From the IMG/VR virus record IMGVR_UViG_3300027612_000005, positions 1,043 through 65,042 of that record: a DNA stretch of 64,000 nt. One strand, written 5' to 3'. Every line of letters starts with the position of its first letter. Position 1 is the first letter of the stretch. This DNA comes from a virus (taxonomy: Duplodnaviria; Caudoviricetes). Below are positions 6,901 to 55,100 of this stretch, one piece after another. Under the pieces are notes generated by a model. The model had not been told where the DNA came from. It was given only the letters and a program-made list of their open reading frames with translations, and did no database searches. The translations under genes were made by a program, and so were the position numbers.

Positions 6901-8952
6901 GCCCATAATACAGCAAAGTGCCGGAACAATAATTGGAAGAACTTCATAGTACCTACCAGTTGATACTTTAATTAGTGTTGTTCGTTCTTCTCTTGCCGGA
7001 ATGTTATCAGCAACACCTGCCGTAATTGCATCGGTTATAATTCCAGTAAGTGATGTAATATTTGCAAGAGTCGATTCTGCTTCGATTGTACCATCAAACC
7101 ATTGATCAACAACTGCTGTTGAATTATCTCCGTTAGTGCTTTGATAATTAACTGTTGGTGCAGCTTGATTTAGTACAGCTTCGATTACTTCTAAACCATA
7201 TGTAATTGACGCAACTGTTTCTGTTTTCTGTCCTAGATACGGTGATCCTATAGTATCATTTATATATGCAAGTGCAGCTTCTCTTGAGCGCACATTGCCG
7301 CCATGCGTAATGTCCCAGACAAGTGCATCAACAATAAGACCCATATCTCTTTCGCATTTTGCGCTATTGTAATCAAAATCTGTAGTAAATGGAGTAAGTC
7401 CATTAGTTATTTGATAATCAGTCCATTCAACAATTTCTCGTTGAATAAATCTACGATTCATTTCTAGTAATCTTGCTGTTGATGGATTTTTAGCGCCTTG
7501 CTCTACTTGTGCTGCTGCATATCTAATACTTTTCCAAGGACGGTCAATTGATTGACCGTAAACTGGTGCAGGTTCATCAACGCCGTGTTCTGCAACATAA
7601 TAAACATCTTCGGTTGAGCCAACAAATGCCCATTCAGGTATTTCTGACTGATTTACTGTTAACACTTGACCGTTTAGTCCAATAGGCAATCTTGTTGGAG
7701 CACTGCCGCTATAATAAACCATATCGCCTGATGTAGTTAAAACGCTTTGCTCTGTACCTACTGCAATAATATGCCAGTATGTGCCGGTAATATCTTGATC
7801 TGGCCTAGAATTATCTGCACCACTTACTTGTGGTATTTGGGTAGAGCCATCGTCGCCTTCAGAAAGGTGTCCTAAGATGCAAACATATGAGTTATCGCCA
7901 TAACGAACAACATCTCCTAGTAGATATTCCGAATCATCGACCCATTCGCCTTTCCAATTAAGACCAGTTGTTAAGCGTTTCCAATATAATATATTAGGTG
8001 GCTGCTGATCTGTATGATCTTCAATACATACATAACTATATCCACCATGTGTTACCAATTCGCCAATTTTATATTCATAGCCTGTGCTATCTTCTCCCCA
8101 TTCGCCTAAGAATTTAAAGCCTTCGGAAAATAGATCCCAATCTGTATTATCGAATGTTGTAGGAATTACGTTAGTATTATCAGTTTTTGAAATATATTGA
8201 TTACCACCGTACTGTACAATATCTCCTGGTTGGTATTGGCCTTGATAGTTCCACTCATTTTCGTACTGGAATCCTTCTACAAATTTTTCAAATTTATCGG
8301 AGTTTGTTGCAAAAGAGTCAGCAGCTGATGTATGTTCCGTAGTACAAATCCACAAACTTGCACCATATCTTACAACATCGTTAATTTTATATCTTGTTTC
8401 AGTTGTCCATGTTGCTTTATATTCAAGACCTTGATTAAAGTAATCCCAGTTAGATTGGTCTGCTTCTAACCCAAGAGCTTCTGTTGCAGCAGAGGTATGT
8501 AATGTATTACATACATATGTAGTACCGCCATATTTTACAACATCATTAATTCTATATCTAGTGTCTGTTGACCAATTACCTTTCCAGTCAAGACCTTCGG
8601 CAAAAATATCCCATTTAGCTAAATCTGCTTCAAGACCGTCTTCGATAGTTGCGGCAGAAGTATGTATTGTATTTGCAATATATAATCTTGCACCATATGA
8701 AACAATATCGTCATATATGTATTCAGTACCTGTTTGCCAATCTCCCTTCCAGGTTTGACCATCACTTACTAAATTCCATTTTGGTGGTGTAATGTCAAAA
8801 TCACTAAAGAAGTCTGACTGACTTTCGTGTCCTACAACACAAATATAAATCTTACCTCCAAGTGATATAACATCATCTTGATAATATGTTGTAGAAGATG
8901 TCCAAGCACCTTTCCAAACAAATCTAATTCTACCTAGTTTAAACTCTGCCAT
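937..8952 (-). CDS. Giant virion fibre/appendage protein (2671 aa): N-terminal WKGxW carbohydrate-binding-like repeats, helical KCxRD repeats, beta-helix-like region, BNR/Asp-box propeller
   Basis: Repeats W(K/N)G.W.....Y...DVV.YGG..Y.C; Asp-box-like motifs YSDDGGQNW, YSLDGKTW, YSEDGQVW; C-terminal SQVRLTGHDFLDIGTGNF block shared with 9001-14496. Confidence 0.7.
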   Translation of the reverse strand: MAEFKLGRIRFVWKGAWTSSTTYYQDDVISLGGKIYICVVGHESQSDFFSDFDITPPKWNLVSDGQTWKGDWQTGTEYIYDDIVSYGARLYIANTIHTSAATIEDGLEADLAKWDIFAEGLDWKGNWSTDTRYRINDVVKYGGTTYVCNTLHTSAATEALGLEADQSNWDYFNQGLEYKATWTTETRYKINDVVRYGASLWICTTEHTSAADSFATNSDKFEKFVEGFQYENEWNYQGQYQPGDIVQYGGNQYISKTDNTNVIPTTFDNTDWDLFSEGFKFLGEWGEDSTGYEYKIGELVTHGGYSYVCIEDHTDQQPPNILYWKRLTTGLNWKGEWVDDSEYLLGDVVRYGDNSYVCILGHLSEGDDGSTQIPQVSGADNSRPDQDITGTYWHIIAVGTEQSVLTTSGDMVYYSGSAPTRLPIGLNGQVLTVNQSEIPEWAFVGSTEDVYYVAEHGVDEPAPVYGQSIDRPWKSIRYAAAQVEQGAKNPSTARLLEMNRRFIQREIVEWTDYQITNGLTPFTTDFDYNSAKCERDMGLIVDALVWDITHGGNVRSREAALAYINDTIGSPYLGQKTETVASITYGLEVIEAVLNQAAPTVNYQSTNGDNSTAVVDQWFDGTIEAESTLANITSLTGIITDAITAGVADNIPAREERTTLIKVSTGRYYEVLPIIVPALCCIMGDELRATNVQPRTKYNQANNLTPKGDVKYSFKALERMEAIIGDVVTGNAVSKTTGNTEIQSQEWPFAETAVVAPQVEKLARTIRRAIDDKLETKIETIYENAWDMSTPANGRSRDLFLLNKEFIQEEILAYIADQYPNILYSKTKCKRDVSLIMDSVAYDLTYGGNWASVEAGKAYFNGNTGTLQIDSSEKTATLAAYQYLKELMQTTGRNIAVSPLYQSETEQIQGTGGNVGASTIIGNVMDDLITVIRDGIANAPTITKPSYTDADITTIESAVNGDLSTIQEQTIDFINANFGTFTYNSAKERTDLSNVATDIAYDVALGTNYNAIFNGIAHNRPTGAYGIADSKTQTVGALRYIRDLIIDDLSDSTAITRVSNAYVEVVDIINNGNGSADTFTYPAPATLPTTDADAAFNNIEANKDFIIAEITAWIADQSGGIWTDFTYDSTKCERDVGYIVEAMKYDILYGGTMATTRIAESYFGTDGAAYPAGQTAQTSAAYGRLQTILDLIAREQLVTVSSTNLEIQTTLGDPGTATEGNALIAKMQIIIDVLDAGNTTGLPAVVRPNLSALAVSATLQSEKTAIDNGLAQNILDTIQYITDTYNEFVFNHVKCSRDIGLIFDAAEYDLALSTNFQSLFAALSYLRAPSANVLLDQKEASIAAFEFARLKIKDIITASGAGGATIAAFNNQVDTTWEYVDDIVLGGSSEGSNAQVEDIEVYNAIRQLEMNKDFMVAEVQAHVDNYFKDTVTETNASNNQFEISSTAWMEENMEIRFTNPDDSTDAITNAGLDDSITYFVKSIVDDTHFTISLFKYGSTTVIQQHNEVFDVAPVYDYNTELCTRDVVAYVDAMKWDLTWAYKWKREYTDGITFYRPGIYKTKLAARYYINSVIGSQEEDFYYMRNGTGLRLQTLDGLRGDLTPTNAYGTSRVTAGAYASLDPGWGPNDQRVWITSRSPYLQNNTTFGYAAVGQKIDGALHNGGNDSMVSNDFTQVISDGIGAWITNNGRAELVSVFTYYSHVGYLAENGGRIRATNGNNSYGTWGSVAEGVDADEVQVTGLVDNRTQYSATVSQVNTDNNQILNYEFGHAGNDYTEVAYDVFGAGDSEVVVGDEFRDDGVYRVRIEEVNDSSGAAGGSGYVVVGNTAQTGSNTGIFLAATDGNISSAYPGMKIYIVGGAGIGQYGIINTYNSGSKEATVIRESDGLAGWDHVVPGTPWVTPNSTSVYQVEPRIEFSGPTKTSGNLTLPSSSTWTDVKYIETSAEYVGLATTTDSDGNGATFDVIRNGSKYYVTLNGGGSGYNRLDTVIISGTSLDGVATTNDITITITTINSATGAIVDFDFTGVGQKGKFLAVSSTTASAVSVDGTTFTAETLPSAGSGVWSRIASGLQYDGSSTYKESVIVVVADGSNNVAYSADADTWSTSSLPGGMNTGAETRITFGSIIDTLANRFVAISSADRDVAYSDDGGQNWTLTTDGLSAIGFDSITYGAGVFVAIASGTTSAAWSNNGIVWNDVTLPGNAGSDITFGNGRFIALGGANGTMYSLDGKTWYDPERSEGTALTLNLTATERRIAYGHGMFVITSTDTDEIEYSEDGQVWTAYTLSGGAIAGGFNAVAFGNPQRTGQFVILPFNAGTGAKYANIGARAKGRASISNEQLFEVRLSEPGSGYSTEPTITVTDPNNINDVILSVRIGKGALANPTFVSRGSGYTAASADVNANASNGVADFFQDGQFVAVRRLTERPVPGSNVVFGSLPGQYFKLVNVVSFRGLNEGSYTAFLQLSPNMEIEDAPADGDSVEMRIRFSQVRLTGHDFLDIGTGNFVDTNYPGIPVNAPQQDHETNEENGGRVFYTATDQDGNFRVGDLFSVEQATGVATLNADAFNIAGLQELTLGEVTLGGNSASITEFSTDPFMTANSDTIVPTQRAVKAYIEAQIGGGGASLVVNSVTAGDIFIGSNLITSVSGDPINIKANIVFSGTVLGLPLAYNYFLRT

Positions 8953-9000: not shown

Positions 9001-12000
9001 TTATTGCATGGTTTCGTCAAAGCCTTTAAAGTAAAGCATTTGACTAATTATTGTTCCTGATATTCCAGTTAATTGTTCAACTTCGTCTTCGTCAGTGTAT
9101 ACGCCATCAAAAACTGCTGGTCTGTCAAAGAATATATACTCGTCTGACGCACTTCGAATAACATTGTCTGAGGTACCAAAACTAACTCGTCCCGCAATAA
9201 CATTGTTTGCTTCTAAGTTTTCGCCACCTACTGATAGTCGTTGTTCTAAGAACGTTGTAACAGCCCGTTGAGTCGGAATAACATTATTACTATCTTCTGA
9301 CATAGTTGGATCTGTACTAAATTCTCTAACAACCGTACCTGTACCACCTAATCTAACGCCGCCTAGTGCTAGTTCGCTCAAACCATCTAAGTCAAAGAAC
9401 TCGGCACTAATAGTAACAATACCCGTTGCCTGTTCGACACTAAACAGTTCGCCGCCTCTAAAGTTGCCGTCTTGGTCTGTACTTACATAAAAGACTCGTC
9501 CGCCTTCTAACTCAAGTACTTCGTTTTCAGGTGCAGCAGTAAAGAATGCGCCGCCTGCATATATTTCAGGATAATTGGTCTCTTCAAAATTTCCTGTACC
9601 TATGTCAAGGAAGTCATGTCCCGAAACACGACACTGCGAATATCTACTTCTTAACGTTGCTCCTGTTAAGTGCTGTAAATTATATTCGTTCTTTAATTTT
9701 GGAGTTACTTTAAACTGAACAAGTCTAGTACCGTTTCCGGTTCCGTCGTCTCCGAGGTCAATAATTTCAATACCAGTAAATAGATCTAAATCATCTGGAT
9801 CTACAGTATCTTCATCAAGAATGCCATCAATTCTAATTTGCACACCGGGTCCTGGTACAATACTAACTCCTGTTAATGTTAATGTATTTTCTTCAGGAAT
9901 AATGTCAGCAAAACCGTCTCCTGAAATAGTAATTTCTGAACTCGAACTTCTATAGCCGCTTCCTCTGTTTATAAAATCAGGTTGAGGTAAAGCGTTATTT
10001 CCGAGTCTCGGGTCTATTTCAACTTCTACAACAAAGGAGTTGTCTGTAACAGTAAAGACTGGCGGAGCAGCGTCTGTATAATTACTACCCGGATCCCATA
10101 TTAAGACATTTTGAAAACTTCCTTGAAATACATCAGCTCTTACTAGTGCTTGTGCACCTGTTCTAATATGTTGACAGCTTCCACTAACTGTTGAATTTGA
10201 ACTCACTGCTACAAAAGTACCAAAATTATTAAGATCAGCATATGCTACCGAAGTCCAATTTTGACTCGATGGCAATTCTTTTGATTCCCATGTAAGACCA
10301 AATTGTGATTGGAAAACAAAATTACTAGCTACGCCGTCAAAATCTCCTACAGCCATAAACAACCCGTTTCCAACTTTTACATCTTTTACACTTACTTCTG
10401 TTGTTCCTATACCTGTATTATATTCAATTGTTCCGCCAACAAGCCATGTTTCGCCGTGATCTAATGAAAATATAGTTTTTCCTGTGGCATCGACTGCAAT
10501 AAATCTATTATTATGATAAACTAAGCTCACCCAATCATAATTTCCTGCAGGTATAACATTACTATACATAGACCAATTAATGCCATCGGTTGAGTATGCA
10601 ACATCTTTCGTATTAGATCCTGCTATTGCAAGAAAAGTACCTGCTCCATATTCAACTGCTTGCCACTGATCTCCTGTAGAATCATCTCCTGTAGGGAGAG
10701 TCATAGCACTCCACGAGAGTCCGTTAACGCTATATGCTCCATTATTACTATTTTCAGCAATTAATACAAATGTATTATTACCAAATGCAGCATCTACCCA
10801 ATTTTCTGTAGATGGCAATGCTCGCGTGATCCAAGAATCGCCGTCATATGAAAAACTTAATCTACTTTCATTACTGGCTATTGCAATAAATCTATCCAAT
10901 CCAGGGACAACTTTCGTAAATGAACCTTGAAAGGACAATTCACGTTCTTGCCAGTTGATACCATTTTCGCTAAAATATACAAATTGATCATTATCAATTA
11001 AAATAAAACGTCCGCCAACCGGAGTACCTGTTTCAGTAAAAGTTAAAATACTGTTTGAGCTATCGTCTGAAACTGATTCAACTGTTATTGTAATATCGTT
11101 AGCAGGACTTGCTCCTCCTAACTGTGTTCCTGATATTGTTATAGTATCTCCTATAGCATATCCTAAGCCGCCACTAGATAGTGTAGTATTATATACTGCA
11201 CCGACTCGTTCAACTCTAAATTCTGCTGCCGCTGGATCACCATCGAAAGTTTCTCCAGTTCCTAACTGCGCTGTTAATCCAAGATACGTTTTTGTATGCC
11301 CTCCGAAAGCAATATCTATAAATTCTCTCGATGCCGGCAAACCCCTATTAGTAGTAGTAAAGTTAGGTTTTGTAGCAACAATTCTAGGTTCTATTCTGTA
11401 TTGTGCTGTAGAATCTAACGACTGTTCAATTGGCGTACCTGGCACAACATGGTCCCAGCCTGGCTGGTCGTCGCTATCTTTTAGTACGTCTACAACTCGA
11501 GTTACTGGATCAAAATCAGCAATATAGCCATACTGCCCTCCTCCGTCTCCTGAAATTATTAATATTCTACAGCCAACAATTTCCGATATATCTTTTGTAA
11601 CATCAGTTGCCGATAATGTAATCGAAGATGTTGAATCCACAGTTACTTGTGCATAACCCTGTCTTATTAAGAACCCACTGCCGCCTTCGCTACCTGATCC
11701 CTGTGTGTTAATTAACCTTGCCTCAGACAGTGCTCCTGTTCTAAAGGATTTATATTCAACATCTGCAAAATCCCCAGCACCGACAATTTCTGCATCTGCG
11801 GTTGTATATTCTTGTCCTGTATTTGTATATTCAAATACATAAACATGATCGTTCGCGCCGCCTGCAAATGCTTGCTTTACTTGTGCTTCGTTATTTCTAT
11901 TCCAAACTAAGCAATCATCAGGAGTTTCGTCTAAATCGTTTCCTTGTGCAATACTTCCAAAACTTCCGTATGAGTTATTTCCATTAGTAGCTCGTATTAC

Positions 12001-14496
12001 ACCGCCATTTTCTGCAAAATATCCAATTTGACAATAGTATGTAAAGACTGATACAAGTTCTGCTCTTGCATTGTTTGTAATCCAGGCACCGATGCCGTCC
12101 GATAATACTTGTGTAAAGTCGTTTGATGTCATTGATTTATTTCCGCCATTGTGTAGAGAGCCATCAACTTTTTTACCAATACATCCTGTGCCAATATTTG
12201 TAACTCCTTGGATATAAGGAGAACGATTTTTAATCCATGTACGTTCGTCATCTGGTCCCCAACCTGGATCAAGGCTTACACAAGCTCCTCCAGTTGGTCT
12301 TTGATATAATTCAAAAACTTCTGGCGGACGTAGTACTCCCACTAGTCCTTCAGTGGTACAATTTCGCAAGCCTGTTGTGTCTCGCATATAAAAGAGGTCA
12401 TCAAGTTGGCTTCCGAGAGCAGCATTTGTCCATCTTCTTGCTGCTAGCAATGTTCTATGATTTCCAGAATATTTTAAATCTTGTATGATGCCGCGTAGCA
12501 TTGCATAAACATCTTCTCTAATTTGTCTTTCATCAAATACAATACTAGGATATGTATCTTGTAAGAATAAAAATACATCTCTAGCAATAAGTTTTCTGTT
12601 GTTAAGTAATTGTACTCCTGCATTTATAAGAGATAACTCAGATGTTAATTCGTTTGTTCCTACGTTAGTAGGATCTGTATCTCCGCTTTCAACTCTGTAT
12701 CTAATATAACTTTCGTAATCGGTCATTAATTCTGTAATTCTAATAGCTGCAAACCCATTAGATAAAGCATCATCATTAAAGTTTTGCTCAATGTTATTTC
12801 CAGAATACACTGACACTGGTTGATTTAAAAGGATTCCTTCTAAAAGACTTGTTATGTGTATATTATAAGCACTTACATATTGTAAACCGTCTTGATATGC
12901 CGGAATAGGCTGATTGGCGGAAATAACTGTAGCTCTTAATTCATCACCTACAACTGCACATCCTGCAGGAATGCTTAATGGTGCCTTTTCGTGATATTTT
13001 CCAGTAGAAACTGCAATTTTAGTAGGAGACAACGGATCGAAATTATCTTCTATATATTCACAGGCAAATCTTACACTTCTAAATGGTTTGTCGAAAGATA
13101 TTCCGTAGCCGTCGTCGTCTTCTCCTAGAGGAGAAACATATATTACATCAGAATCATTTAAAAATCTTCTCCAAAAAACTTCTAAATCAGAAGATACTGA
13201 CAATGCTTGTCCTTCTTCTCCAATTGGTACTCTTGTATCTGATAATGTACTTCCGTCTCCGTAGTTTTCTCTAGAAAGCCCGTAGGTTAAAAGATCACCC
13301 TTATCGTGCAGACCACCTGGTCTGCCTGCTTGTATTAATAAATCCCAATATTCAAATCCGCTGCCGTTGTCGCCTGGAGAATTATCGTAAACTGCTTCGT
13401 GTTCAAAATTACATTTATATGCTGTTCCTAGATGATATACAACATGACCAACAGAATAATAATTTCCCACATTCCAATTTTCAACAAAGTTTTGACCTTT
13501 ATTAACTAATTCCCATAAATCTGGATCTAAATAATCTGCACTACTTCCATCTGTCGCTGTTGTATTAATATCGCTTTTTGCAATATATAAATCACCACCT
13601 CTTAAAACAACATCACCTGTTTTATAAACTGTAGTAATTTCCCAATCGTCTACAAATCTATATGCACTTGCAAGTATAATCCAATTTTGCGTACTATCAT
13701 TACTTGTACCGCTCGGTTCAGTATCGTAGTTATTGTTTATAGCATAGTACAAAAATCCGCCGTGTCTTACGATATCGCCTTGGTTATAAAAAGTAATATT
13801 ATTCCATTCGCCGTTATTTTGCGATCCTGGAAATTCTAAGTCAAAAACTCTATCGTCTAAGTTAGTTGGATTTGATGTATGTGTTTCGGTACAACGAAAA
13901 ATTGTAGCACCATACTTTACTAAATCATTCTTTCTATATTCTGTACTTGGCTGCCATTCTCCGACATACTCAACACCTTCGTGAAATACTGTCCAATCAT
14001 TAACATTATCTTCAAGTATTGCTCCACTTAAATGTGCAAATTCACATTTGTATGCAATACCGTTATATTTTACAACAGATCCAGGACCATACGAAGTATT
14101 TTGTTGCCAATCTCCTACAAATCCTTGATGTAGTGTTTTTTCAGTCCAGTGAGCAATGTCAGCAAAAAATGTACTAGCGAGGTGATCTTGTACACATTCC
14201 CACAAATTACCATCGAACAAAATGATATCACCTAAGTTATATTCTGTGCCTTCTGTCCACGATCCTACAAAAGACTTACCGCTAGTCATTACAACCCATC
14301 TAGGAGCAGGTTGCGGAGGATTTGATCCTACTACAATGGCGTCTAAATCTTCTCTAAACACTCCGGCAGTATGACCTATCACACAGACATAGCTCTTACC
14401 ATTAACTCTAACTATGTCATCTCTTTTGTATATAATTCCTGAAGTCCAATCACCTCTCCAGTTATATTTAAATCTATCTAACTTAAATTCAGCCAT
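9001..14496 (-). CDS. Giant virion fibre/appendage protein (1831 aa), paralog of 937-8952
   Basis: Same MAEFKL.R start, WxGxW repeats, SPY.Q..T.....G.K.DG.LHNGGN.SM.SNDFTQV block, Asp-box motifs and GHDFLDIGTGNF C-terminus. Confidence 0.7.
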   Translation of the reverse strand: MAEFKLDRFKYNWRGDWTSGIIYKRDDIVRVNGKSYVCVIGHTAGVFREDLDAIVVGSNPPQPAPRWVVMTSGKSFVGSWTEGTEYNLGDIILFDGNLWECVQDHLASTFFADIAHWTEKTLHQGFVGDWQQNTSYGPGSVVKYNGIAYKCEFAHLSGAILEDNVNDWTVFHEGVEYVGEWQPSTEYRKNDLVKYGATIFRCTETHTSNPTNLDDRVFDLEFPGSQNNGEWNNITFYNQGDIVRHGGFLYYAINNNYDTEPSGTSNDSTQNWIILASAYRFVDDWEITTVYKTGDVVLRGGDLYIAKSDINTTATDGSSADYLDPDLWELVNKGQNFVENWNVGNYYSVGHVVYHLGTAYKCNFEHEAVYDNSPGDNGSGFEYWDLLIQAGRPGGLHDKGDLLTYGLSRENYGDGSTLSDTRVPIGEEGQALSVSSDLEVFWRRFLNDSDVIYVSPLGEDDDGYGISFDKPFRSVRFACEYIEDNFDPLSPTKIAVSTGKYHEKAPLSIPAGCAVVGDELRATVISANQPIPAYQDGLQYVSAYNIHITSLLEGILLNQPVSVYSGNNIEQNFNDDALSNGFAAIRITELMTDYESYIRYRVESGDTDPTNVGTNELTSELSLINAGVQLLNNRKLIARDVFLFLQDTYPSIVFDERQIREDVYAMLRGIIQDLKYSGNHRTLLAARRWTNAALGSQLDDLFYMRDTTGLRNCTTEGLVGVLRPPEVFELYQRPTGGACVSLDPGWGPDDERTWIKNRSPYIQGVTNIGTGCIGKKVDGSLHNGGNKSMTSNDFTQVLSDGIGAWITNNARAELVSVFTYYCQIGYFAENGGVIRATNGNNSYGSFGSIAQGNDLDETPDDCLVWNRNNEAQVKQAFAGGANDHVYVFEYTNTGQEYTTADAEIVGAGDFADVEYKSFRTGALSEARLINTQGSGSEGGSGFLIRQGYAQVTVDSTSSITLSATDVTKDISEIVGCRILIISGDGGGQYGYIADFDPVTRVVDVLKDSDDQPGWDHVVPGTPIEQSLDSTAQYRIEPRIVATKPNFTTTNRGLPASREFIDIAFGGHTKTYLGLTAQLGTGETFDGDPAAAEFRVERVGAVYNTTLSSGGLGYAIGDTITISGTQLGGASPANDITITVESVSDDSSNSILTFTETGTPVGGRFILIDNDQFVYFSENGINWQERELSFQGSFTKVVPGLDRFIAIASNESRLSFSYDGDSWITRALPSTENWVDAAFGNNTFVLIAENSNNGAYSVNGLSWSAMTLPTGDDSTGDQWQAVEYGAGTFLAIAGSNTKDVAYSTDGINWSMYSNVIPAGNYDWVSLVYHNNRFIAVDATGKTIFSLDHGETWLVGGTIEYNTGIGTTEVSVKDVKVGNGLFMAVGDFDGVASNFVFQSQFGLTWESKELPSSQNWTSVAYADLNNFGTFVAVSSNSTVSGSCQHIRTGAQALVRADVFQGSFQNVLIWDPGSNYTDAAPPVFTVTDNSFVVEVEIDPRLGNNALPQPDFINRGSGYRSSSSEITISGDGFADIIPEENTLTLTGVSIVPGPGVQIRIDGILDEDTVDPDDLDLFTGIEIIDLGDDGTGNGTRLVQFKVTPKLKNEYNLQHLTGATLRSRYSQCRVSGHDFLDIGTGNFEETNYPEIYAGGAFFTAAPENEVLELEGGRVFYVSTDQDGNFRGGELFSVEQATGIVTISAEFFDLDGLSELALGGVRLGGTGTVVREFSTDPTMSEDSNNVIPTQRAVTTFLEQRLSVGGENLEANNVIAGRVSFGTSDNVIRSASDEYIFFDRPAVFDGVYTDEDEVEQLTGISGTIISQMLYFKGFDETMQ

Positions 14497-20851: not shown

Positions 20852-23800
20852 TTAGCCGTAAATCAGCGTCTGAATAAACGCTTCTTCTTCCATTTGGTCT
20901 TCTGAAATGCTTGCAAACTCACCTGCAGAAGTTCTCCATTCTGTTCCGATCCAGGTTTCAAGTTCTCCACTATCTGTGTTTACTCTTGTTTGACCTAATA
21001 CTGGATTTGTAGGTCTCGATGCTGTATTACCTGTTGGAAATTTAACTGCCGAATCTCCTTCAAATACAATCCAGCCATTGCCGGTTCCGGCAATCTCTAT
21101 TGTAGAGTCTGTTAATGTATTTGAAATAGTTTCTTCTTTTAAAATTAAACCTTCTACATTTAATTCGCCCGTGCCGTCTGTTCTTAATTCTAAATCTGAA
21201 TTGGAGTTGTTTGTAGAAATTGAAGTGTTATCTAAAAGAATGTCGTCAATTTCAAGTCCGTTAACATATAAACTAGTAGAATCTAAAGATGCTACTTCGG
21301 TTTCGTCTACAATAAATGAAATAGTATTGTTTACAGGATGTGCAGAAATAGTAGTTTTTCTGTCTTCAGAATAAACTCCACCTAGCGTTATCGTCGAAGT
21401 ATTATATCCTTCAAAGACATTTTCACCTAAATTAAATCTTAAATCTCCTTGACCATTTATTCGTTGTCCTGTAGTACCTGAAGGTAATTTTAATGCTCCA
21501 GTAGAGTTGAATATAAAGTCTTCTCCTGGAACAAATGTAATATCAGGAGTAGTGCTGTCTAGCAATGCTCTAGTACTAATACTGTCATTTGAAAATTCTA
21601 AATTCTGTGTATAAACACTACTAGTACCATTAGCTCTTAGTTCTAAGTTAGAGTTAGAATTTGTTGTTGTAATAACATTTTCAAATAACTGTATATCTGT
21701 ACTAAGTTCAATAGTATCTAATTCAATAGTATTTCGAACAATTATTGTTTCGATATCATTTAAAGATTCTGCTGTAAGATTTTTTTCAATAACAACATTG
21801 TTGTTAGATACTAACACATTTCCAGTGCCTGCAGAACGCAACTCTAAATCTGCATCACTTGTAGTTGTTGTAATTACGTTGCCATCGAACAGTATTTCTT
21901 CTAGCTGTACTTGACTACTTACATCTAAATCGCCGTCAACTACAAAATTAACAACACTTAAATTGTTGCTTACGCTGTAATTACCAGTTTGTGTTATTGA
22001 ACCTGTTATAGACACATTGTCATTAATAATAGTTTCGCCGTTTACTGTTAAATCTTGCGATATATTAACATCGTTAGATTCAATAACAATATCACCAATA
22101 CCGTTTGCTCTAAGATCTAAATCTGCATTAGATATTTTTGTACTGATAAAATTATCGTCTATTTCAATTATACTCGGCGGTATAACAATTTCGTTTAGGA
22201 CAATATCTGCATTAATGTTTATGTCGCCAGTTGTAATACTTGCAGCAAATAAATTTCCGTCTACAATAACATTTTCGTCAAATACTACATTTCCAGTTCC
22301 ACTAGCACGTAATTCTAAATCGCTATTAGTAGCAGTAGTTGTAATAAAATTATCTTCGATGCGTATATCTTCAAACTGTGCTTGAGAATCTACAGATAAA
22401 TTACCTTCAACTGCAAAGTTTTCAGTAACAGTTAGGCTACCGTCTTGTACGTTTCCTTGAAGTGTTAAATTACCATTAATTGTTAACGTACCTTGGTATG
22501 TTAGTGTTCCTTCAACAAAAAGATTGTTGTTAATAGTAAGTGTGTCGCTTGTGTCAATTACTACTTCACCTGTGCCATTAGCACGTAATTCTAAATCCGA
22601 GTTAGAATTTGTAGTGGTAATAAAGTTATCTTCAATTAAAACATTGCCGTTTGTAAATTCGCCAGCAACATCTAAATTACCCGTTTGTGTAGTATTACCT
22701 ACGTGTGTTAACGTACCGGTAATTGCAGTACCTTGTAGAGTCGTTAATCCGCTTACAGTTAAATCTTGTGTTATCTTAACATCGTTAGCATCAACATTAA
22801 TATCACCTGTTGCGCCTAGTATTAAATTACTTGAAGTAGTTGAAATAAAGTTATCTTCAACATAAACATTGTCAACTGTTAGTTCACCGTTTAACGTGTG
22901 AGTATACGGCAGTTGTTCAATTGCATATATCTTTTGTGTAGAGCCACTACCGTAATAGTTGCTTATAAGACTACTACCTTGCCCTATATATTCTCCTACC
23001 TTATATCTAAATGAATTGCCGTTTCTATTTCCATCGACAATATCCCCTGTTGTCATTTCTGCAGCAGGTTGATATCTTGCTACTTCTACATTATCAAATA
23101 CAAATATATTATATCTGCCGCTGAAGCCAGCTCTTCCTGTAACGAAAAAGAATCTAGGACTGAAAATATCAGCTCCTTGGAACTGTTCACCAAAAGGTCC
23201 TGCTCCTGGATTTTCAATTCTATTACCAGTATGTGCTAACGTACCAGTAATTGTAGTGTCTTGTAAATTTGTATCTGTGTTTACAGTTAAGTTGTTGTTT
23301 ATTTGTAAATTATTATTAGGTATTAAAACTTCGCCGGTGCCACTAGCACGTATTTCTAGATCCGAGTTAGAATTAGTTGCAGTAATAAAGTTATCTTCGA
23401 ATAATATATTGCTATTAGAAATTTCGCCAGCAATTTCAAAATTGCCTGTTTGCGTTCTATTACCTATATGAGTTAATGTACCAGTAATGCTTGTATTCTG
23501 TAAAGAAGTACCATCAAATCTTGGTCTAATTGTAACAGTAATATCAAACGATGAGAACCCATTTGCTAAAGTTGGAATATCAATTACTGCTTCTTCTCTG
23601 TCAATACTATTCCAAGACGTTAGAGTAAACGGATAATCAATACCTGAGGATGTTATAATACCGGCATCGCCAGGTTCAAGTGTTTGTATTGCTATCCAGG
23701 TAGCTGAACTAGGTTCTCCTGTAAGTAGTAGTGCATCTCCAAATAAATCTTTTTGTATAGCAGCTTCGCCGCCGCCGAACGTACTTGTAACTACGCCATC

Positions 23801-26449
23801 GTTTGCTGCGCCGCCTGTACCGTTAACTGTTAAGTCTTGCCCGAATGTAACATTGTTATTTGGTATAACTATATTACCTGTACCACTAGAACGTAGTTCT
23901 AAGTCAGCATTTAGCGTATTGCTAGAAAAATAATTTCCTTGGATATCAACACTCGATACATCAGCAGTACCAAATTCAACAGTAGTTGTTATTGTTGTAT
24001 TATTATTTGATGTTATATCGTCTGCTGACAAATTATTGTTTATTTGTACATCGTTATTAGGTATTAAAATATTACCTGTGCCATTAGCACGTAGCTCTAA
24101 ATTTGCATTTGTGCTAGTTGTAGTAATAAAATTATCGTCAAATAATATTTCTTCAAATTGTGCAGATTGAGATATATCAATATCTTGATTAATAATTGCT
24201 GTTGTAGAATTTATTGTTATAGGATTAGGTATGCTTACATTGTTTGGATTAAGATTTCCGTCGATGTTTACTGTAGTAAAAGTAGAAATACCATTTACTG
24301 TTAAATTATTACTAAATGTTGCAGTATTTGGAACTAGTAGATTTCCTGTTCCGTTGGCACGTAATTCTAAATTGCTGTTAGAGTCTTTAGTTGTTATTAC
24401 ATTATCAAAAACATTTACATTGTCTACATCAATTTCTGATAACCAAATATTACTCCACTGCTTTGTAGCAGATCCTAAGTTAAAGTTTGAATCAGAATGA
24501 GGATTAAAATTTTGATCTAAATTAACATTAAATTCTATTAAGTCAGTAGGCTGATTACCTAATAAGTTTAACGACCCGTCAAAACTTAAATTGCCTGTAA
24601 TATCTAAGTTTTGTGTAATTGAAGTGTCGGCTGTAATATTAATATCAGCTGCTGAAGTAAAGTTTAAATTGTCTGTTGTTGATCCTACAGTGTTTGCAAA
24701 AAATCTAACATTTCCAGTTTGTACTTTACTAACATCTATAATAGTTTTATCGCTGCCATCTACAATTTCTATATTTGTAATAGCATCTGCAGATATATCA
24801 TCTGCATTTAGCGTTGTTGATCCTGTTTCAAAATCAACAAAGAAATTATCACCTACTCTAAATGCACCTGTATGATCGGTTGTTACAAATTGTATTCTGC
24901 CAGAATTTAGTTCAACAACTTCGTTGTCTTGATTTACCAAACTAACATCGTTTTCTTTGTCTTTTCCAGTTCCGATGTATGCTAAATTATGTTGTATCAA
25001 ATACATCAATGTATCAGAACCATCTGCAACAGCACCATAGTTTCCGTATACACTTGCAGAACCTATTGATCGTATTTCTGCACCGTAAATTACTGTACTT
25101 CCGTCTGGACTTGTTCTACCTGTTACTCCATTTATAGCATACAAACCTCTGTTAGCAAAATATGTAAACGAGTTTAGCCATTCAACTCTAACACCGTTTG
25201 TCATTGTAAGAGCATCTACGCCGGGCGTGATAAAAGTAACTGAGTGGAACAGCATACTAGCATCGACACTTGCACTATCTAATTCTGCTCCGTCTACTAA
25301 CGCACCTTTACCTGCATCACCTTCGTCAAATCCTCTTGGATCACTTACACTTGTAGTACTACCTTGAGTAATTACTGTACAATTTTGTACATATGGGGAC
25401 CTTGTTGATATTACGCCTCCGGGTGCAAATCTAAACGCATAACCTTTATCGTTTATGCTGTCATAGAAGAAATCCTTAATTGTTAAATTTGATATAGTGG
25501 CTTCGCCATTAAGATGAAATACATCTTCGCTTTGATATGCTGTTGAGGGTTTTATAATTACATTTCTTACATCTTCGCCTACAATTGAAACATCCGGTGG
25601 AACTACTAGAGGCAAATCTTCTTGATATTCTCCCGGGGCAACATATATAGAAACTGGACCAGCTGTACTTGAGTCTGCACGAGACAATGCTTCTTTAATA
25701 GACGATAACGGAGCAAGTATATGATCACCGACATTGCTATCATTGCCGTTTACTGCAACATAAAATTGATTTCCGTGTTTTAGATTATAACTAACACCAC
25801 CTGCTAAAACAGTGTCAGTTATAATTAATTCACCGTTTAATCTTTCAATATATGCATTATTCCATTTTTTTGTTGATGATCCTAAATCAAATAATCCGTC
25901 GGCATCGGGATTTATATCGCTAGTAATGTCGCTTTCGAATGTAATAGTGTCTACAGTGCTATCGTCGCCGAAAGTTATGCTTCCATCAAATGTAATATTT
26001 CCAGTAGCATCTATATTTCCAAATACTTCTAAATCACTTTGAACATCTAATATACCAGAGCCGTTAGGGACTATATCTATATCAGAATTGCTTACAGTAG
26101 TAGATATAATGTTATCGTTAACTTTTATAGTTCCGTTGTCTAATGTTGATAAAACAACTGCTTCTTGTGCATCGAGAAATATATCTCCTATAAATGCACT
26201 AAAGGTACTGTCAGTTATATTGAACCCAGGAGTAGTTGCTGGTCCGGAAATTAAAGTTGTTGTTCGAGTTGTTCCGAGAACATCAAGTTCTCTAGTAGGA
26301 GTTCCATTATTGACGCCTATTTTTCCAGTGTTAACATCTATATATAATAACTGCGTTGTGCTTAGGTCATTACGAAATGCAAGATCTATCCCGTTTCTTT
26401 CAAGATTTGCGTAAAGTAATGGCCCGGATATTCTACCAACTTGTGCCAA
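20852..26449 (-). CDS. Long tail-fibre-like protein (1865 aa), paralog of 15252-20696; TTG start
   Basis: Same GRISGPLL..NL.RNGIDLAF N-terminus and SNSDLELRANGTG repeats; AGGAG RBS before TTG. Confidence 0.7.
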   Translation of the reverse strand: MAQVGRISGPLLYANLERNGIDLAFRNDLSTTQLLYIDVNTGKIGVNNGTPTRELDVLGTTRTTTLISGPATTPGFNITDSTFSAFIGDIFLDAQEAVVLSTLDNGTIKVNDNIISTTVSNSDIDIVPNGSGILDVQSDLEVFGNIDATGNITFDGSITFGDDSTVDTITFESDITSDINPDADGLFDLGSSTKKWNNAYIERLNGELIITDTVLAGGVSYNLKHGNQFYVAVNGNDSNVGDHILAPLSSIKEALSRADSSTAGPVSIYVAPGEYQEDLPLVVPPDVSIVGEDVRNVIIKPSTAYQSEDVFHLNGEATISNLTIKDFFYDSINDKGYAFRFAPGGVISTRSPYVQNCTVITQGSTTSVSDPRGFDEGDAGKGALVDGAELDSASVDASMLFHSVTFITPGVDALTMTNGVRVEWLNSFTYFANRGLYAINGVTGRTSPDGSTVIYGAEIRSIGSASVYGNYGAVADGSDTLMYLIQHNLAYIGTGKDKENDVSLVNQDNEVVELNSGRIQFVTTDHTGAFRVGDNFFVDFETGSTTLNADDISADAITNIEIVDGSDKTIIDVSKVQTGNVRFFANTVGSTTDNLNFTSAADINITADTSITQNLDITGNLSFDGSLNLLGNQPTDLIEFNVNLDQNFNPHSDSNFNLGSATKQWSNIWLSEIDVDNVNVFDNVITTKDSNSNLELRANGTGNLLVPNTATFSNNLTVNGISTFTTVNIDGNLNPNNVSIPNPITINSTTAIINQDIDISQSAQFEEILFDDNFITTTSTNANLELRANGTGNILIPNNDVQINNNLSADDITSNNNTTITTTVEFGTADVSSVDIQGNYFSSNTLNADLELRSSGTGNIVIPNNNVTFGQDLTVNGTGGAANDGVVTSTFGGGEAAIQKDLFGDALLLTGEPSSATWIAIQTLEPGDAGIITSSGIDYPFTLTSWNSIDREEAVIDIPTLANGFSSFDITVTIRPRFDGTSLQNTSITGTLTHIGNRTQTGNFEIAGEISNSNILFEDNFITATNSNSDLEIRASGTGEVLIPNNNLQINNNLTVNTDTNLQDTTITGTLAHTGNRIENPGAGPFGEQFQGADIFSPRFFFVTGRAGFSGRYNIFVFDNVEVARYQPAAEMTTGDIVDGNRNGNSFRYKVGEYIGQGSSLISNYYGSGSTQKIYAIEQLPYTHTLNGELTVDNVYVEDNFISTTSSNLILGATGDINVDANDVKITQDLTVSGLTTLQGTAITGTLTHVGNTTQTGNLDVAGEFTNGNVLIEDNFITTTNSNSDLELRANGTGEVVIDTSDTLTINNNLFVEGTLTYQGTLTINGNLTLQGNVQDGSLTVTENFAVEGNLSVDSQAQFEDIRIEDNFITTTATNSDLELRASGTGNVVFDENVIVDGNLFAASITTGDININADIVLNEIVIPPSIIEIDDNFISTKISNADLDLRANGIGDIVIESNDVNISQDLTVNGETIINDNVSITGSITQTGNYSVSNNLSVVNFVVDGDLDVSSQVQLEEILFDGNVITTTTSDADLELRSAGTGNVLVSNNNVVIEKNLTAESLNDIETIIVRNTIELDTIELSTDIQLFENVITTTNSNSNLELRANGTSSVYTQNLEFSNDSISTRALLDSTTPDITFVPGEDFIFNSTGALKLPSGTTGQRINGQGDLRFNLGENVFEGYNTSTITLGGVYSEDRKTTISAHPVNNTISFIVDETEVASLDSTSLYVNGLEIDDILLDNTSISTNNSNSDLELRTDGTGELNVEGLILKEETISNTLTDSTIEIAGTGNGWIVFEGDSAVKFPTGNTASRPTNPVLGQTRVNTDSGELETWIGTEWRTSAGEFASISEDQMEEEAFIQTLIYG

Positions 26450-29277: not shown

Positions 29278-29385
29278 GATTATTTCTCCTTTGTTTTAAT
29301 CATCGCCGTTCTAGGGTCTACGCGGTGGATTTCCGCATAAGTCTTGTTTTATCAAGCACCTATTTGACATATGTATTTATCAAAT

Positions 29386-29414
29386 AAGAAAAAAGCCCGC
29401 ACTGTGCGGGCTTT
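29386..29414 (-). terminator. Rho-independent terminator downstream of pqqA
   Basis: AAAGCCCGCA-cag-TGCGGGCTTT stem followed by a U-run on the minus strand. Confidence 0.8.
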
Positions 29415-29472
29415 GTTTATTCGCAATCTAATGTTTCTATTAGTTTGCTCATATCTACTTCTAATTCAGAAT

Positions 29473-29544
29473 CTACTTGTTCATTACATACATTGTTACT
29501 TCGAATCCGAATCTCATCTCTGTTGCTGTCGGTGTTGTCCACAT
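29473..29544 (-). CDS. pqqA: Coenzyme PQQ precursor peptide PqqA (23 aa, MWTTPTATEMRFGFEVTMYVMNK)
   Basis: Not in ORF track. Manual translation; AAGGAG RBS at 29551-29556; conserved E-x-x-x-Y (EVTMY) whose Glu and Tyr form PQQ; matches the MW..P......FGFEVT.Y family pattern. Confidence 0.92.
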   Translation of the reverse strand: MWTTPTATEMRFGFEVTMYVMNK

Positions 29545-29643
29545 ACTGTACTCCTTAAATTAAGTTAATAAAATTGTACTGCAATACTATTTAAACATAT
29601 TTAGAAGCAAAAGTCATACGTAAAATCATTAAAGTTTAGTCAT

Positions 29644-29670
29644 AAAAAAGGGCGACCTAAGCCGCCCTTT
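29644..29670 (-). terminator. Rho-independent terminator after the major capsid gene
   Basis: AAAGGGCGGC-ttag-GTCGCCCTTTTTT on the minus strand, 25 nt after the MCP stop. Confidence 0.85.
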
Positions 29671-29694
29671 AATTGCTTTACAACTAGTGTAATA

Positions 29695-30867
29695 TTACTT
29701 GAAGCTAACGCTTGTATCAGTAATGTTAACACGAGCTAGGTAATCAGCTGCATTACCAAGTGATGAAGCTGTGTTGTTTAGCTCAACATAACCATAACGA
29801 GTCATGAAGCTAACAACTGGCTCGAAGCTAGACGGATCTAGTACGACACCACTTGACATCAATGGAATGTATGGGCAGTAGAACGCTGCCGCATCTGATT
29901 CTGAAGTACCTTTGTATCCAACGATAACTGGAGCATTGTTAGCACTATAAGTGTTAACATATACTTTCATTGCGTTGTTTAATGTACCAACCATCTTAGT
30001 GTTAGTTGGTGCTTCAAATGTACCTTCAGTAGTACGTGCAAATGCTGAAGTTGTTGCTGACTGTAGAATTGTAAGCGCGAATGGCGATACAACTGCCCAG
30101 TTTCCTGCGCCACGACGTGTGCGCTGAGCAATCAAGTTTGAAGCACGGTTGATTTGAACTGCAAGTGCTGCATGCTCATCACCAACGAACGTAGCTGTAC
30201 CTGATACTGCTGACTGGTCGTATGTTTCTACAGCAGATCCTGCTAATGATGTAAGAGATGATAAGATCTCTTGATCAATTTCAGCAGTAATTTCCTGCGC
30301 TAGTGCAGCCATTACTTCTGCTTCTACGTCGATACCATGCTGCGACTGTGCGTCTTGTGCAGCTTCGAAAGTCCAACGTGCGCTGAGCTTACGAGTTTTA
30401 GCTTCGACTGTTTGCTTCAAGATCTGGATGCTTAGTTTATTACCAGCTTGTCCTTCTAGTGAAGCTGTTGGTGCAGGAGCGTTTGTTCCATCACCTGAAT
30501 ATGCTTCAGCAATCTTGAATGGGCTTAGAGCCTCTTCGCCTGCTACTGCGCCTGATGCGCCTGAGCCTGCTGTGTCGCTATAGCGAACACGTAGTGTGTG
30601 GATTTGACCCACGGGTCCTGTCATTGGCTGTACACCGACTAATTCGTTAGCAATAACTGTTGGCATAACGCGACGAATGACTGGTAAAATAACTCTATTT
30701 AGAGTTGCAACATTACCGGCAGAGGTAGCACCTGCTCCAGCAGTCTCTGAAAGATACCTACGAGTATTTTCTAGAGTTGCTTCCATAACACTCTTTTTAG
30801 TTCCTTGTAGGCCTTCAAGAAGTGCAGTCTTGGTGTCCTGCCAGCGACTTTCTAGTAGTTCTGACAT
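29695..30867 (-). CDS. gp23: Major capsid protein, T4 gp23-like
   Basis: VQPMTGPVGQIHTLRVRY, VEAKTRKLSARWTFEAAQD..HGID.EAE..LA.EI..EID.E, FYCPYIPL, F.P...FMTRYG motifs. Confidence 0.95.
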   Translation of the reverse strand: MSELLESRWQDTKTALLEGLQGTKKSVMEATLENTRRYLSETAGAGATSAGNVATLNRVILPVIRRVMPTVIANELVGVQPMTGPVGQIHTLRVRYSDTAGSGASGAVAGEEALSPFKIAEAYSGDGTNAPAPTASLEGQAGNKLSIQILKQTVEAKTRKLSARWTFEAAQDAQSQHGIDVEAEVMAALAQEITAEIDQEILSSLTSLAGSAVETYDQSAVSGTATFVGDEHAALAVQINRASNLIAQRTRRGAGNWAVVSPFALTILQSATTSAFARTTEGTFEAPTNTKMVGTLNNAMKVYVNTYSANNAPVIVGYKGTSESDAAAFYCPYIPLMSSGVVLDPSSFEPVVSFMTRYGYVELNNTASSLGNAADYLARVNITDTSVSFK

Positions 30868-52107: not shown

Positions 52108-55100
52108 ATGTCATCAACAGATAGACAAAATAGATTATTACTAGCAGAAGATTGGAAACGTGTATATCAGTCTTTTCGAAATGCTGATTTTAAGTCTTAT
52201 GATTTTGATAATCTAAGACGTACAATGATTTCTTACTTACGTGAGAATTATCCAGAAGACTTTAACGATTACTTAGAGAGTTCAGAATACCTGGCACTGA
52301 TTGATCTTATTTCGTTCCTTGGGCAAAATATTGCTTTCCGTATTGATCTTAATGCAAGAGAAAACTACTTAGAATTAGCAGAGCGCCGTGAAAGTGTACT
52401 ACGTTTAGCAAGATTGCTTTCCTACAATCCTAAACGTAATCAAGCAGCAAACGGCTTGTTAAAAATTAGTGCCGTTTCGACAACACAAGAAATTATAGAT
52501 TCTAATAATATTAATTTAAAAAATCAAACTATTGTCTGGAATGATCCAAGTAATCCTGATTGGTACGAGCAGTATATTAGGGTAATGAATGCTGCGTTGC
52601 CTGTTAACGGAACATTCGGAAGACCTAATAAAAGAGAAATTATAGGCGGCATTCCTACCGAACAATATAGATACAATAGTACAAATAATGATATTCCTGC
52701 TTATAGCTTTACTAAAACTATAGACGGAAAAACTTCGTTATTTGAAATTGTTTCTACAAATATTACAGAAAGCCAAATAGAAGAAGAAGCACCGTTTCCT
52801 GGAAACAATTTTGCGTTTTTGTACAGAGAGGATGGCCGCGGCGTAGCGAGTTCTAATACAGGATTTTTTTGCCACTTTAGACAAGGTTCGCTAGACCAAG
52901 GAACATTCAATATCAGTAATCCGTCTACTAATCAAGTAGTTGCTATCGATGCTACAAATGTTAACCAAAGTGATGTTTGGTTATATAAACTTGATAGCTT
53001 AGGAAATGAGCAAGAGCTATGGTCTAAAGTAGATGCAGTTGAAGGCAATAATGTTATCTATAATAGTTTGAATAGAGGTATTAGAAATATTTATAGCGTG
53101 TTAACACGTATTGAAGATAGAATCAGTCTAATTTTTAGTGATGGCGTGTTTGGTAATCTTCCTCAAGGTAATTTCCGTGCGTATTATAGATCTAGTAAAA
53201 ATCAAAGATTAGTAATTACTCCAGACGACATGAAAGGAATTAGTATACGTATTCCTTATGTGTCAAAAAGTGGAAAAGCAGAAACTATTACATTGACATT
53301 TGAGTTAAAATACACAGTTGACAATGCAACTGTAAGTGAAAGTAGTGCAAACATTAAAGCGAATGCACCTGCAACTTACTACACTCAGAACAGAATGATT
53401 ACCGCAGAAGACTATCAAATAGGTCCTCTAACAGTAAGTCAAGAAGTTGTTAAGGCAAAATCAGTTAATAGAACTTCAAGCGGCATTTCACGATACTTTG
53501 ATCTTATTGACGCAACAGGAAAATATTCTACAACAAATTTATTTGGTGTTGACGGAGCAGTTTATAAAGACTATCTAAATTTAAAAACTAGTTTTACGTT
53601 TGAAAATTTAACAGACATTGAAGGTTCTATTGTTAATAATATCGAGCCTATTTTGTCAAGCATTAAAATTAGAAATTATTATTATGATAAGTTCCCACAG
53701 TTATTAGTAGAAGACTTAGGTTCATCGTGGATACAATCTAGTACAGGTACTAATATTTCAACTGGATATTTTGAAAATCCAAACGGAGTTAGTGTTAAGG
53801 TAGGATCATTTACTGGCTCGAACATGAAGTTTGTTAAACTTAATTCTTTACTACGATTCGAAGCTCCTGCAGGATTTCATTTTTTAAATGGCAAATTAGA
53901 AGCAGGGTCTCCTGATTTTAGAGGTGGAACGCTGTACAAGTGGGTAAAAGTAATTAACGTATCTGGGAATGGAGTAGAACTATTATCAGACAATTCCGGA
54001 CCAATTACATTTAATGATGTTATCCCTCAAGGTGCATTGTTAGTAGAAATACGTACAGCATTGCCGACAGCACTTACAGCCGATGTAAAAGCACAAGTTG
54101 TAGATCAAATATTTTCTTACAAAACATTTGGTTTAAGATATGATCAAAATCGAGGACAATGGCGTGTTATTTCAGAAAACAATTTAAATACTTCTAGTGC
54201 GTTTTCAACAGGTAAAACAGGCGATAGTACTAATCAGCAATTAGATTCAAGCTGGTTATTACTTTTTAATACTGACGGTGAAAAATACACAATAACATAT
54301 CGAGCAATGAGATATATTTTTGAAAGCGACAATGAAATTAGATTTTACTATGATTCTAGTGATAAGATTTATAATAATAAAACTGGTAAAATTGTTAAAG
54401 ATAAAATTAATGTTTTAAATATTAATACACAGCCTGACTCATCTAATGCGTTCAATAATAATTTTCTTTGGGAAATTGTAGAAGAATATAGAGACGTTGA
54501 AGGATATGTAGATTCTAAAAAAATACAAGTAAGTTTCTTTGACGAAGACGATGACGGTGTTGTTGATAATCCAGAAATTTTTAAAGAGCTTGTTGCAGAA
54601 ACTGTAAATCCATTAGACAAGTTAGTCTTCTTACAAAAAATTACTACAGTAGACGGCATTAATGATTTTGTTTATGTGTCAAAAGATTCTATAAATGTAC
54701 AAACATTTAATAGTAAGGCAAGTGTCGGAGCACTAAGTCAATACGATAATGGACAACTATTTTACTATTTGCAAGAAGATATTTTTGAAGTATTAGATTC
54801 GTCTACAGGCACACTGTCTATTAATACAGACTACAAAGCAAAGATTGGCAGAGATGCACTAAAATTCCAATATGTACATGCTGCTGATCAAGACAGCAGA
54901 ATTGATCCAAGTGCAAGTAATATAATCGATACTTACTTGTTAACAAGAGGATACGACACTCAATATAGACTATGGCTTGAAGGATCTAGAAGTACAAAGC
55001 CGCTACCTCCAAGTAGTGATGATTTATACATTAGCTATGCTTCGGAATTAGGAAAAGTTAAATCACTTAGCGACGAAATCATTTATCATCCAGTTAAGTA

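Follow-up and report, generated by a model that had tools for sequence, protein, structure and literature searches.

PqqA is the small peptide that methanol-using bacteria consume to make the cofactor PQQ. A reading frame that would encode such a peptide lies directly behind the major capsid gene in the window, the 64,000-nucleotide stretch of viral DNA analysed here, and it raises the questions of whether a phage can carry a functional pqqA, where this copy came from, whose signals control it, and what a phage would gain from it. The parts of the pqqA unit and the capsid, sigma-factor and nuclease genes described below are on the minus strand of the window.

A stand-alone pqqA unit behind the capsid gene

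The open reading frame, as read from the sequence and the ORF listing, has 23 codons, begins with ATG and occupies positions 29473-29544. Its product aligns over the full length of two family profiles, NCBIfam TIGR02107 (37.6 bits, E 1.4e-9; cut-off 20) and Pfam PF08042 (38.5 bits; cut-off 21.1); for so short a frame, such scores are far beyond chance. The Glu and Tyr of PqqA supply atoms that become PQQ, and both members of this Glu-x-x-x-Tyr cross-link pair are present in the phage peptide as Glu15 and Tyr19. They lie in the G-x-E-x-x-x-Y context conserved in this family, whose peptides have about 20-30 residues. A Shine-Dalgarno sequence, AAGGAG (29551..29556), lies 6 nt before the ATG, and the same AGGAG spacing recurs in 44 viral cassettes. 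The earlier note had proposed this frame, its ribosome-binding site and its PqqA identity from the letters alone, naming the TIGR02107 profile as a check; the positions are as it gave them, and both profiles confirm the identification. The phage-borne pqqA is a genuine gene, correctly read.

The upstream border of the pqqA cassette is the intrinsic terminator of the capsid transcript (29644..29670; -16.8 kcal/mol, z -3.9), and a second intrinsic terminator with a 10-bp stem stands behind the gene (29386..29414; -16.0 kcal/mol, z -4.7). A U run follows each of these hairpins, and neither was matched in fold energy by any shuffle. Between the first terminator and the gene are an operator-like box of the TAATGA-TTT-TACGTA type (29615..29632), which comparison with host upstream regions marks as the counterpart of the host pqqA operator, and two TAAATA boxes (29588..29593 and 29598..29603). 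The proximal TAAATA box, a candidate -10 or late-promoter element, is found in a TG-TTTAAATA context and is kept in four other contigs (L087, L104, L127 and L032). When 44 distinct viral pqqA upstream regions were aligned, a common layout emerged, consisting of a TAATGA-TTT-T... box, a weak -35, a spacer of about 17 nt, a -10, a leader, AGGAG and ATG; the jumbo contigs have TTTAAATA as their -10 box, whereas that of small phages resembles TATAAT or CATAAT. Every element of the stand-alone unit described in the earlier note, from the tandem TAAATA boxes to the two terminators, was found at the coordinates it had given. Judged from its sequence, the window pqqA is a small self-contained transcription unit made up of an operator-like box, a putative promoter, a ribosome site, a gene and a terminator.

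The surroundings of this unit are those of a large phage. The adjoining upstream gene (29695..30867) encodes a gp23-type major capsid protein (PF07068, 2e-99; phrog_138, 1e-98) that is 65-69% identical to those of phages of 285-470 kb, namely Phosso, Vibrio phage 2.275.O, PA5oct and Rak2-like enterobacterial phages. Prohead protease and T4-type portal genes come after the capsid gene, a conserved phage gene of 137 codons flanks pqqA on its other side, and baseplate genes and SbcCD-like nucleases are found elsewhere in the window. The IMG/VR record of 65 kb is rated about 18% complete, which implies a genome of about 350 kb. Five very large virion- or fibre-like ORFs of 1,814 to 2,814 or more residues, some of them paralogous, lie within 937-26449 and 55557-63998, and short N-terminal stretches of the large ORFs match tail-fibre regions of Melnitz and MEP301 (46-64% identity over 36-69 residues). 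A tRNA search found no tRNA gene. Near-identical DNA is present in marine metagenomes and metatranscriptomes of 2017. Family searches across the 65-kb record (about 18% of the genome) found no PqqD, radical-SAM, PqqC-type or PQQ-dehydrogenase domain; the earlier claim that the window holds no other pqq genes stands as far as pqqC-, pqqD- and pqqE-type domains are concerned.

Solely because of the very high likeness of pqqA to host genes, the possibility that host DNA was misassembled into the phage contig was considered, and no support for it was found. The neighbourhood of capsid gene and pqqA recurs in L087, L127 and L104/L110; L104 and L110 were obtained from separate samples, yet their pqqA regions do not differ. 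Most of the stretch is also represented in contigs of a DNA run, which reveal no junction at the borders of the cassette, and the terminators that flank it are of phage type. This reading is effectively refuted, and we give it almost no credence.

Distribution among phages and the probable host

To judge from its relatives, pqqA is not a fixed possession of this phage lineage. Of 80 IMG/VR contigs retrieved by capsid similarity (80-93% identity), about 55 have enough flanking sequence to judge, and a PqqA-like ORF within 3 kb of the capsid gene is present in only three of these (L281/L282, which are the same contigs as L104/L110, and L288). In L281/L282 pqqA occupies the same spot in inverted orientation. 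A distant gp23 phage (L094), with a capsid protein only 34% identical, also has pqqA directly behind its capsid gene. Capsid relatives differ in how far the capsid gene stands from the homologue of the 137-codon gene, with distances between about 0.4 kb and 1.7 kb (L267, L294 and L281, compared with 29278-29694 in the window), and the interval appears to collect different inserts. Because pqqA is rare among the capsid relatives and the length of the interval varies, the gene is best regarded as an accessory insert at a variable spot, not as a core gene of the lineage. The coding sequence in the window is nearer to other viral copies (93% and 88% identity) than to any host copy (at most 85.5%) over 69 nt that carry little signal, a pattern that fits spread between phages.

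When the peptide was compared by tblastn with 50,697 phage records, 12 records matched, eleven of them methylophages, and pqqA was found in every methylophage record returned, including P19250A, Venkman, MEP301, MEP401, MEP402 and four Melnitz isolates. The twelfth complete match was a podovirus from Manatee Spring, and there were two weak Acinetobacter matches. The gene has escaped annotation: among six phage records inspected, four (P19250A, Venkman, MEP301 and MEP402) have no annotation at all where it stands, and in Melnitz (L006, 2461-2556) and MW202481 (L007, 2067-2195) it is beneath a 'hypothetical protein' annotated on the opposite strand. Four isolate papers of the cultured methylophages make no mention of pqqA. 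The peptides of these phages resemble that of the window in size (23-24 residues) and sequence (73-96% identity), their genes are likewise stand-alone, and several have the same upstream box. However, the cultured methylophages belong to other lineages with genomes of 35-141 kb and carry pqqA in early, recombination or tRNA regions, whereas the window copy is behind the capsid gene. Among uncultured viruses, the core motif was found in at least 120 IMG/VR contigs and was intact in all 120 of the matches listed, a figure that is biased because the scan used the coding motif.

The novelty implied by the earlier note was overstated, since a viral PqqA was published in 2020 from Methylophilaceae phages of Lake Baikal (population VP_266; Coutinho et al. 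2020, Microbiome, PMC7678222). VP_266 resembles the window in that its phage contig, for which methylotrophs are the predicted hosts, carries the PqqA precursor gene by itself; the gene was read as an auxiliary gene for PQQ and methanol dehydrogenase (PMC7678222). VP_266 comes from fresh water and is accompanied by a viral methanol dehydrogenase, whereas the window belongs to a marine jumbo phage of the Rak2/PA5oct type with pqqA behind the capsid gene and no dehydrogenase in 65 kb. The passages searched contain no mention of a promoter or operator of the cassette (PMC7678222). The window copy has the origin and setting of an auxiliary gene, in that it is host-derived, with a peptide 96% identical to the host's, and is flanked by phage genes.

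Lambdoid morons and the mobile promoter/stem-loop cassettes of T4-type phages are promoter-gene-terminator units inserted at variable spots between conserved structural genes. The pqqA cassette has its own terminators and a predicted promoter-like architecture, stands between conserved phage genes, and is absent from about 52 of 55 capsid relatives, all of which are marks of a moron; it differs from the known cassettes in that its promoter region is recognisably from the host gene's own control region. It could thus be a mobile passenger, spread among co-infecting methylophages by recombination at the conserved promoter and terminator borders with little or no benefit to its carriers. The patchy occurrence (three of about 55 relatives), the inversion at the same spot in L104/L110, the nearer identity to viral than to host coding sequences, and an RNA-library contig that shares only the cassette (29473-29633) all speak for such mobility. 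A gene without benefit is harder to reconcile with its presence in all methylophage records returned (six named phages), with its intact state in the listed IMG/VR matches, biased as that count is, and with the upkeep of a working-looking ribosome site and terminators. A passenger of little or no value is therefore an unlikely description of the cassette, and a supply of PQQ precursor to the infected cell is the reading preferred here.

The type of PqqA points to the kind of cell in which the phage probably multiplies. A codon scan for the core motif in one genome per prokaryote species matched at least 120 contigs, and among the matches listed nearly all were Methylophilaceae, of the genera Methylotenera, Methylophilus, Methylobacillus, Methylovorus and Ca. 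Methylopumilus and of the OM43 group; among the same matches, the window PqqA is one residue away from the commonest Methylophilaceae PqqA. These results agree with the Methylophilaceae sequence type that the earlier note had named. Because the scan was built from the query, and so was biased towards intact copies of the Methylophilaceae type, an even class-wide sample of 301 genomes was added. PqqA was matched in 42 of the 301 genomes, but only the Methylopumilus genome on which the search was centred reached 96% identity, all others being at 75% or less; the matches of three unpublished genomes in the sample (G304, G149 and G047) were at only 57-59%, and none of the conclusions drawn here depends on them.

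Genes for pqqE and pqqC score above cut-off in a marine OM43-like metagenome-assembled genome (MAG) and three other Methylophilaceae genomes, so such hosts can process the peptide. Host genomes themselves contain orphan pqqA units, located more than 150 kb from pqqCDE, and linkage to pqqBCDE is therefore not strictly defining for a PqqA. In OM43, pqqA stands alone between an ammonium transporter gene and mltA, with one terminator before its box and another after the gene. One contig deposited as bacterial (L230; CAUYTX010000455.1, 'Gammaproteobacteria bacterium CCP3-SC1AL1') has a pqqA with an upstream region of viral type, comprising a terminator, a TTCATGG-TTTT box and a short leader. A phage contig or prophage may have been binned with a genome in this case.

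An OM43-type host is backed independently of pqqA by a SegE-type GIY-YIG nuclease gene (41510..41959; PF19835, 2e-35). The best matches of its product among the 50,697 phage records, at 68.9% identity, are to a 'hypothetical protein' found in all four isolates of the OM43 myophage Melnitz, and the next are at 52% or less, whereas the core genes of the window phage are only 33-41% identical to those of Melnitz. Homing-type nucleases of the GIY-YIG family move between phages that meet in one cell, and the likeness to Melnitz points to a recent exchange between phages of one host. The earlier suggestion of an OM43/Methylophilaceae host thus has two independent lines in its favour, the PqqA type with its operator box and the Melnitz-like nuclease. 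The jumbo phage most likely infects marine Methylophilaceae.

The control region of the phage cassette

The box upstream of the phage gene was compared with the control regions of host pqqA genes. A half-box, T[C/A]ATG[A/G]-www-T, is present upstream of pqqA in 83% of host and 76% of viral regions, compared with 1.8% and 3.2% of random windows. Of 119 regions upstream of host pqqA genes, 14 contain the 17-mer box of the window itself with at most four mismatches, compared with 0.37% of random host windows, and the best host matches among those listed are from a Methylotenera MAG and an OM43 single-cell genome; this Hamming test was used because the host weight matrix was trained on the strict palindrome class only, so that the window box scores near zero on it. 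In an unbiased count, the 8-mers that are commonest upstream of host pqqA genes turned out to be the reverse complements of those commonest upstream of the viral copies. A consensus derived from viral regions only had matched 29 of 116 viral and 2 of 119 host regions, from which the element was at one point taken to be virus-specific; the 8-mer counts and the half-box pattern overturned that interpretation.

In its perfect palindromic form the box occurs at eight sites in four Methylophilaceae genomes, and seven of the eight lie 110-120 nt before pqqA, be it operon-linked or orphan; no perfect box was found in a fifth, incomplete OM43 genome. In its general host form, T(C/A)ATGA-3 nt-TCAT(G/T)A, the box precedes the ATG by about 110-125 nt, and a second half-box, TTCATGA, often follows it (L339, L342, L336-L338, L340 and L341; L237, 6606-6740). 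The median distance from box to ATG is 86 nt in phages and 121 nt in hosts, and the orientation in phages is nearly always one and the same. Exact copies of the 14-mer of the box number essentially one in each phage genome and do not exceed background in five host genomes, which argues that it is neither a general phage promoter nor the site of a large host regulon. The 6-3-6 layout with TAATGA and TCATTA arms resembles that of a Fur box, but Fur was kept as a lead only, because seven of the eight perfect boxes precede pqqA and not iron genes. There is no consistent regulator gene beside the host pqqA copies examined, some of which face a LysR-type gene, and a literature search for a described pqqA operator gave nothing relevant.

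The nearest bacterial counterparts of the phage cassette are orphan pqqA units in Methylophilaceae, such as those of an OM43 single-cell genome and of Ca. Methylopumilus, which have a near-identical peptide, their own terminators and an operator-like box. They differ in that their box is about 121 nt from the ATG and is joined by a second half-box, whereas in the phages the distance is about 86 nt and the -10 is TATAAT- or TAAATA-like. The phage cassette has the appearance of an orphan unit acquired from a host together with its operator. Because the host operator-like box has been retained, expression of the phage copy may depend on a host regulator. As Zeng and Chisholm reportedly described in 2012, the cyanophage genes pstS and phoA carry host pho boxes and their expression is set by host signalling. 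The pqqA cassette would be alike in principle, being a host-derived metabolic gene of a phage that keeps the site of a host regulator, although the regulator of the pqqA box is only putative. We propose tentatively, at somewhat less than an even chance, that phage cassettes keep the dedicated pqqA operator of the host, that the PQQ regulator of the host switches the phage copy, and that the phage of about 350 kb in which this occurs infects OM43-type methylotrophs. Retention of the host pqqA control box by phage pqqA copies may be the novel aspect of this locus.

A retained box could also act on the host. The box might titrate the pqqA regulator, or the peptide might occupy PqqD/PqqE, with the result that host PQQ synthesis is re-tuned or blocked; the persistence of the host pqqA box in 76% of viral cassettes and the high copy number that a jumbo phage reaches in a cell would both suit such an effect. 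However, the box is absent from about a quarter of viral cassettes, and a blocked energy metabolism is hard to square with the needs of a 350-kb phage. Moreover, a peptide that keeps the cross-link residues and shares 96% identity with the host substrate should be processed like that substrate and not act as an inhibitor. Interference with host regulation is thus a very improbable purpose of the cassette, and provision of a usable precursor accords better with these features.

The second question about control is whether the phage also places pqqA under its own late programme, as the earlier note had suggested. TAAATA is found within 60 nt upstream of 10 of the 32 window genes, compared with an expectation of 0.77, and the window encodes a gp55-like late sigma factor (45011..45880; phrog_12791, 1.9e-81). 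The motif stands 4-35 nt before many start codons, for example those of the genes at 937-8952, 9001-14496, 20852-26449, 29695-30867, 39969-40958, 45919-46728 and 52108-55557. TAAATA is probably the late-promoter core of this phage, read by the gp55-like factor, and the enrichment together with the sigma factor makes a late-type promoter plausible for pqqA. However, TAAATA is also found inside the promoter region of pqqA in the OM43 host, which the window cassette resembles; a host operator-like box is present; and the cassettes of small phages are of the TATAAT type. The TAAATA boxes of the earlier note have held up, while late control of the phage pqqA is no more than possible on this sequence evidence.

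In RNA-library contigs from three marine metatranscriptomes, the capsid module exceeds the genes downstream of pqqA 10-50 times in word depth, whereas depths in the DNA run are flat. The RNA evidence consists of assembled contigs with one depth per contig, which cannot show the level or the ends of a transcript; the capsid-module depths suggest that the phage was transcribed in the sampled waters. Contigs from two RNA libraries cover the pqqA cassette but fit only at 29473-29633 and diverge on both sides, and because the match ends there, they are attributed to a variant genome with the same cassette. The contigs of metatranscriptome X4 give no cover over pqqA.

Role of the phage copy and its significance

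The role of the phage pqqA is probably to supply the stoichiometrically consumed precursor of PQQ during infection. According to this model, an orphan Methylophilaceae pqqA would have given rise to the unit, which in this marine jumbo phage now occupies the variable interval next to the capsid gene. The peptide would be made during infection from the promoter of the cassette, from the TAAATA late-type promoter of the phage, or from both. PqqD and PqqE of the host would bind the peptide and form the cross-link between Glu and Tyr, after which PqqB and PqqC of the host would finish PQQ. One peptide would be used for each PQQ at a time when host transcription has probably been shut down by the phage, and the phage copy would keep the XoxF or MxaF methanol dehydrogenase provided with its cofactor and hence secure energy for a genome of about 350 kb. 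Through the retained box, the host pqqA regulator may still control or boost the phage copy. Media for the culture of OM43 are supplemented with PQQ (PMC9004378), so the cofactor may also be taken up from outside.

A phage pqqA is of a kind already known since 2020; the present analysis adds that the phage copies have kept the operator of the host, that the cassette is accessory and mobile, and that a second link to the host exists. Methylophilaceae such as OM43 and LD28 account for a large part of methanol turnover in coastal seas and lakes, by means of methanol dehydrogenases that need PQQ, and OM43-type methylotrophs are among the smallest free-living cells. The occurrence of pqqA in all methylophage records returned, in at least 120 uncultured viral contigs and in a jumbo phage suggests that the supply of PQQ precursor limits phage production in these hosts. 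The pqqA type offers a cheap host marker for viral contigs, and the retained operator box is a testable handle both on control of the phage copy and on the host regulator of PQQ synthesis. If control through the box is borne out, the cassette would join the cyanophage genes with pho boxes as the second example in nature of host regulation extending to a metabolic gene carried by a phage.
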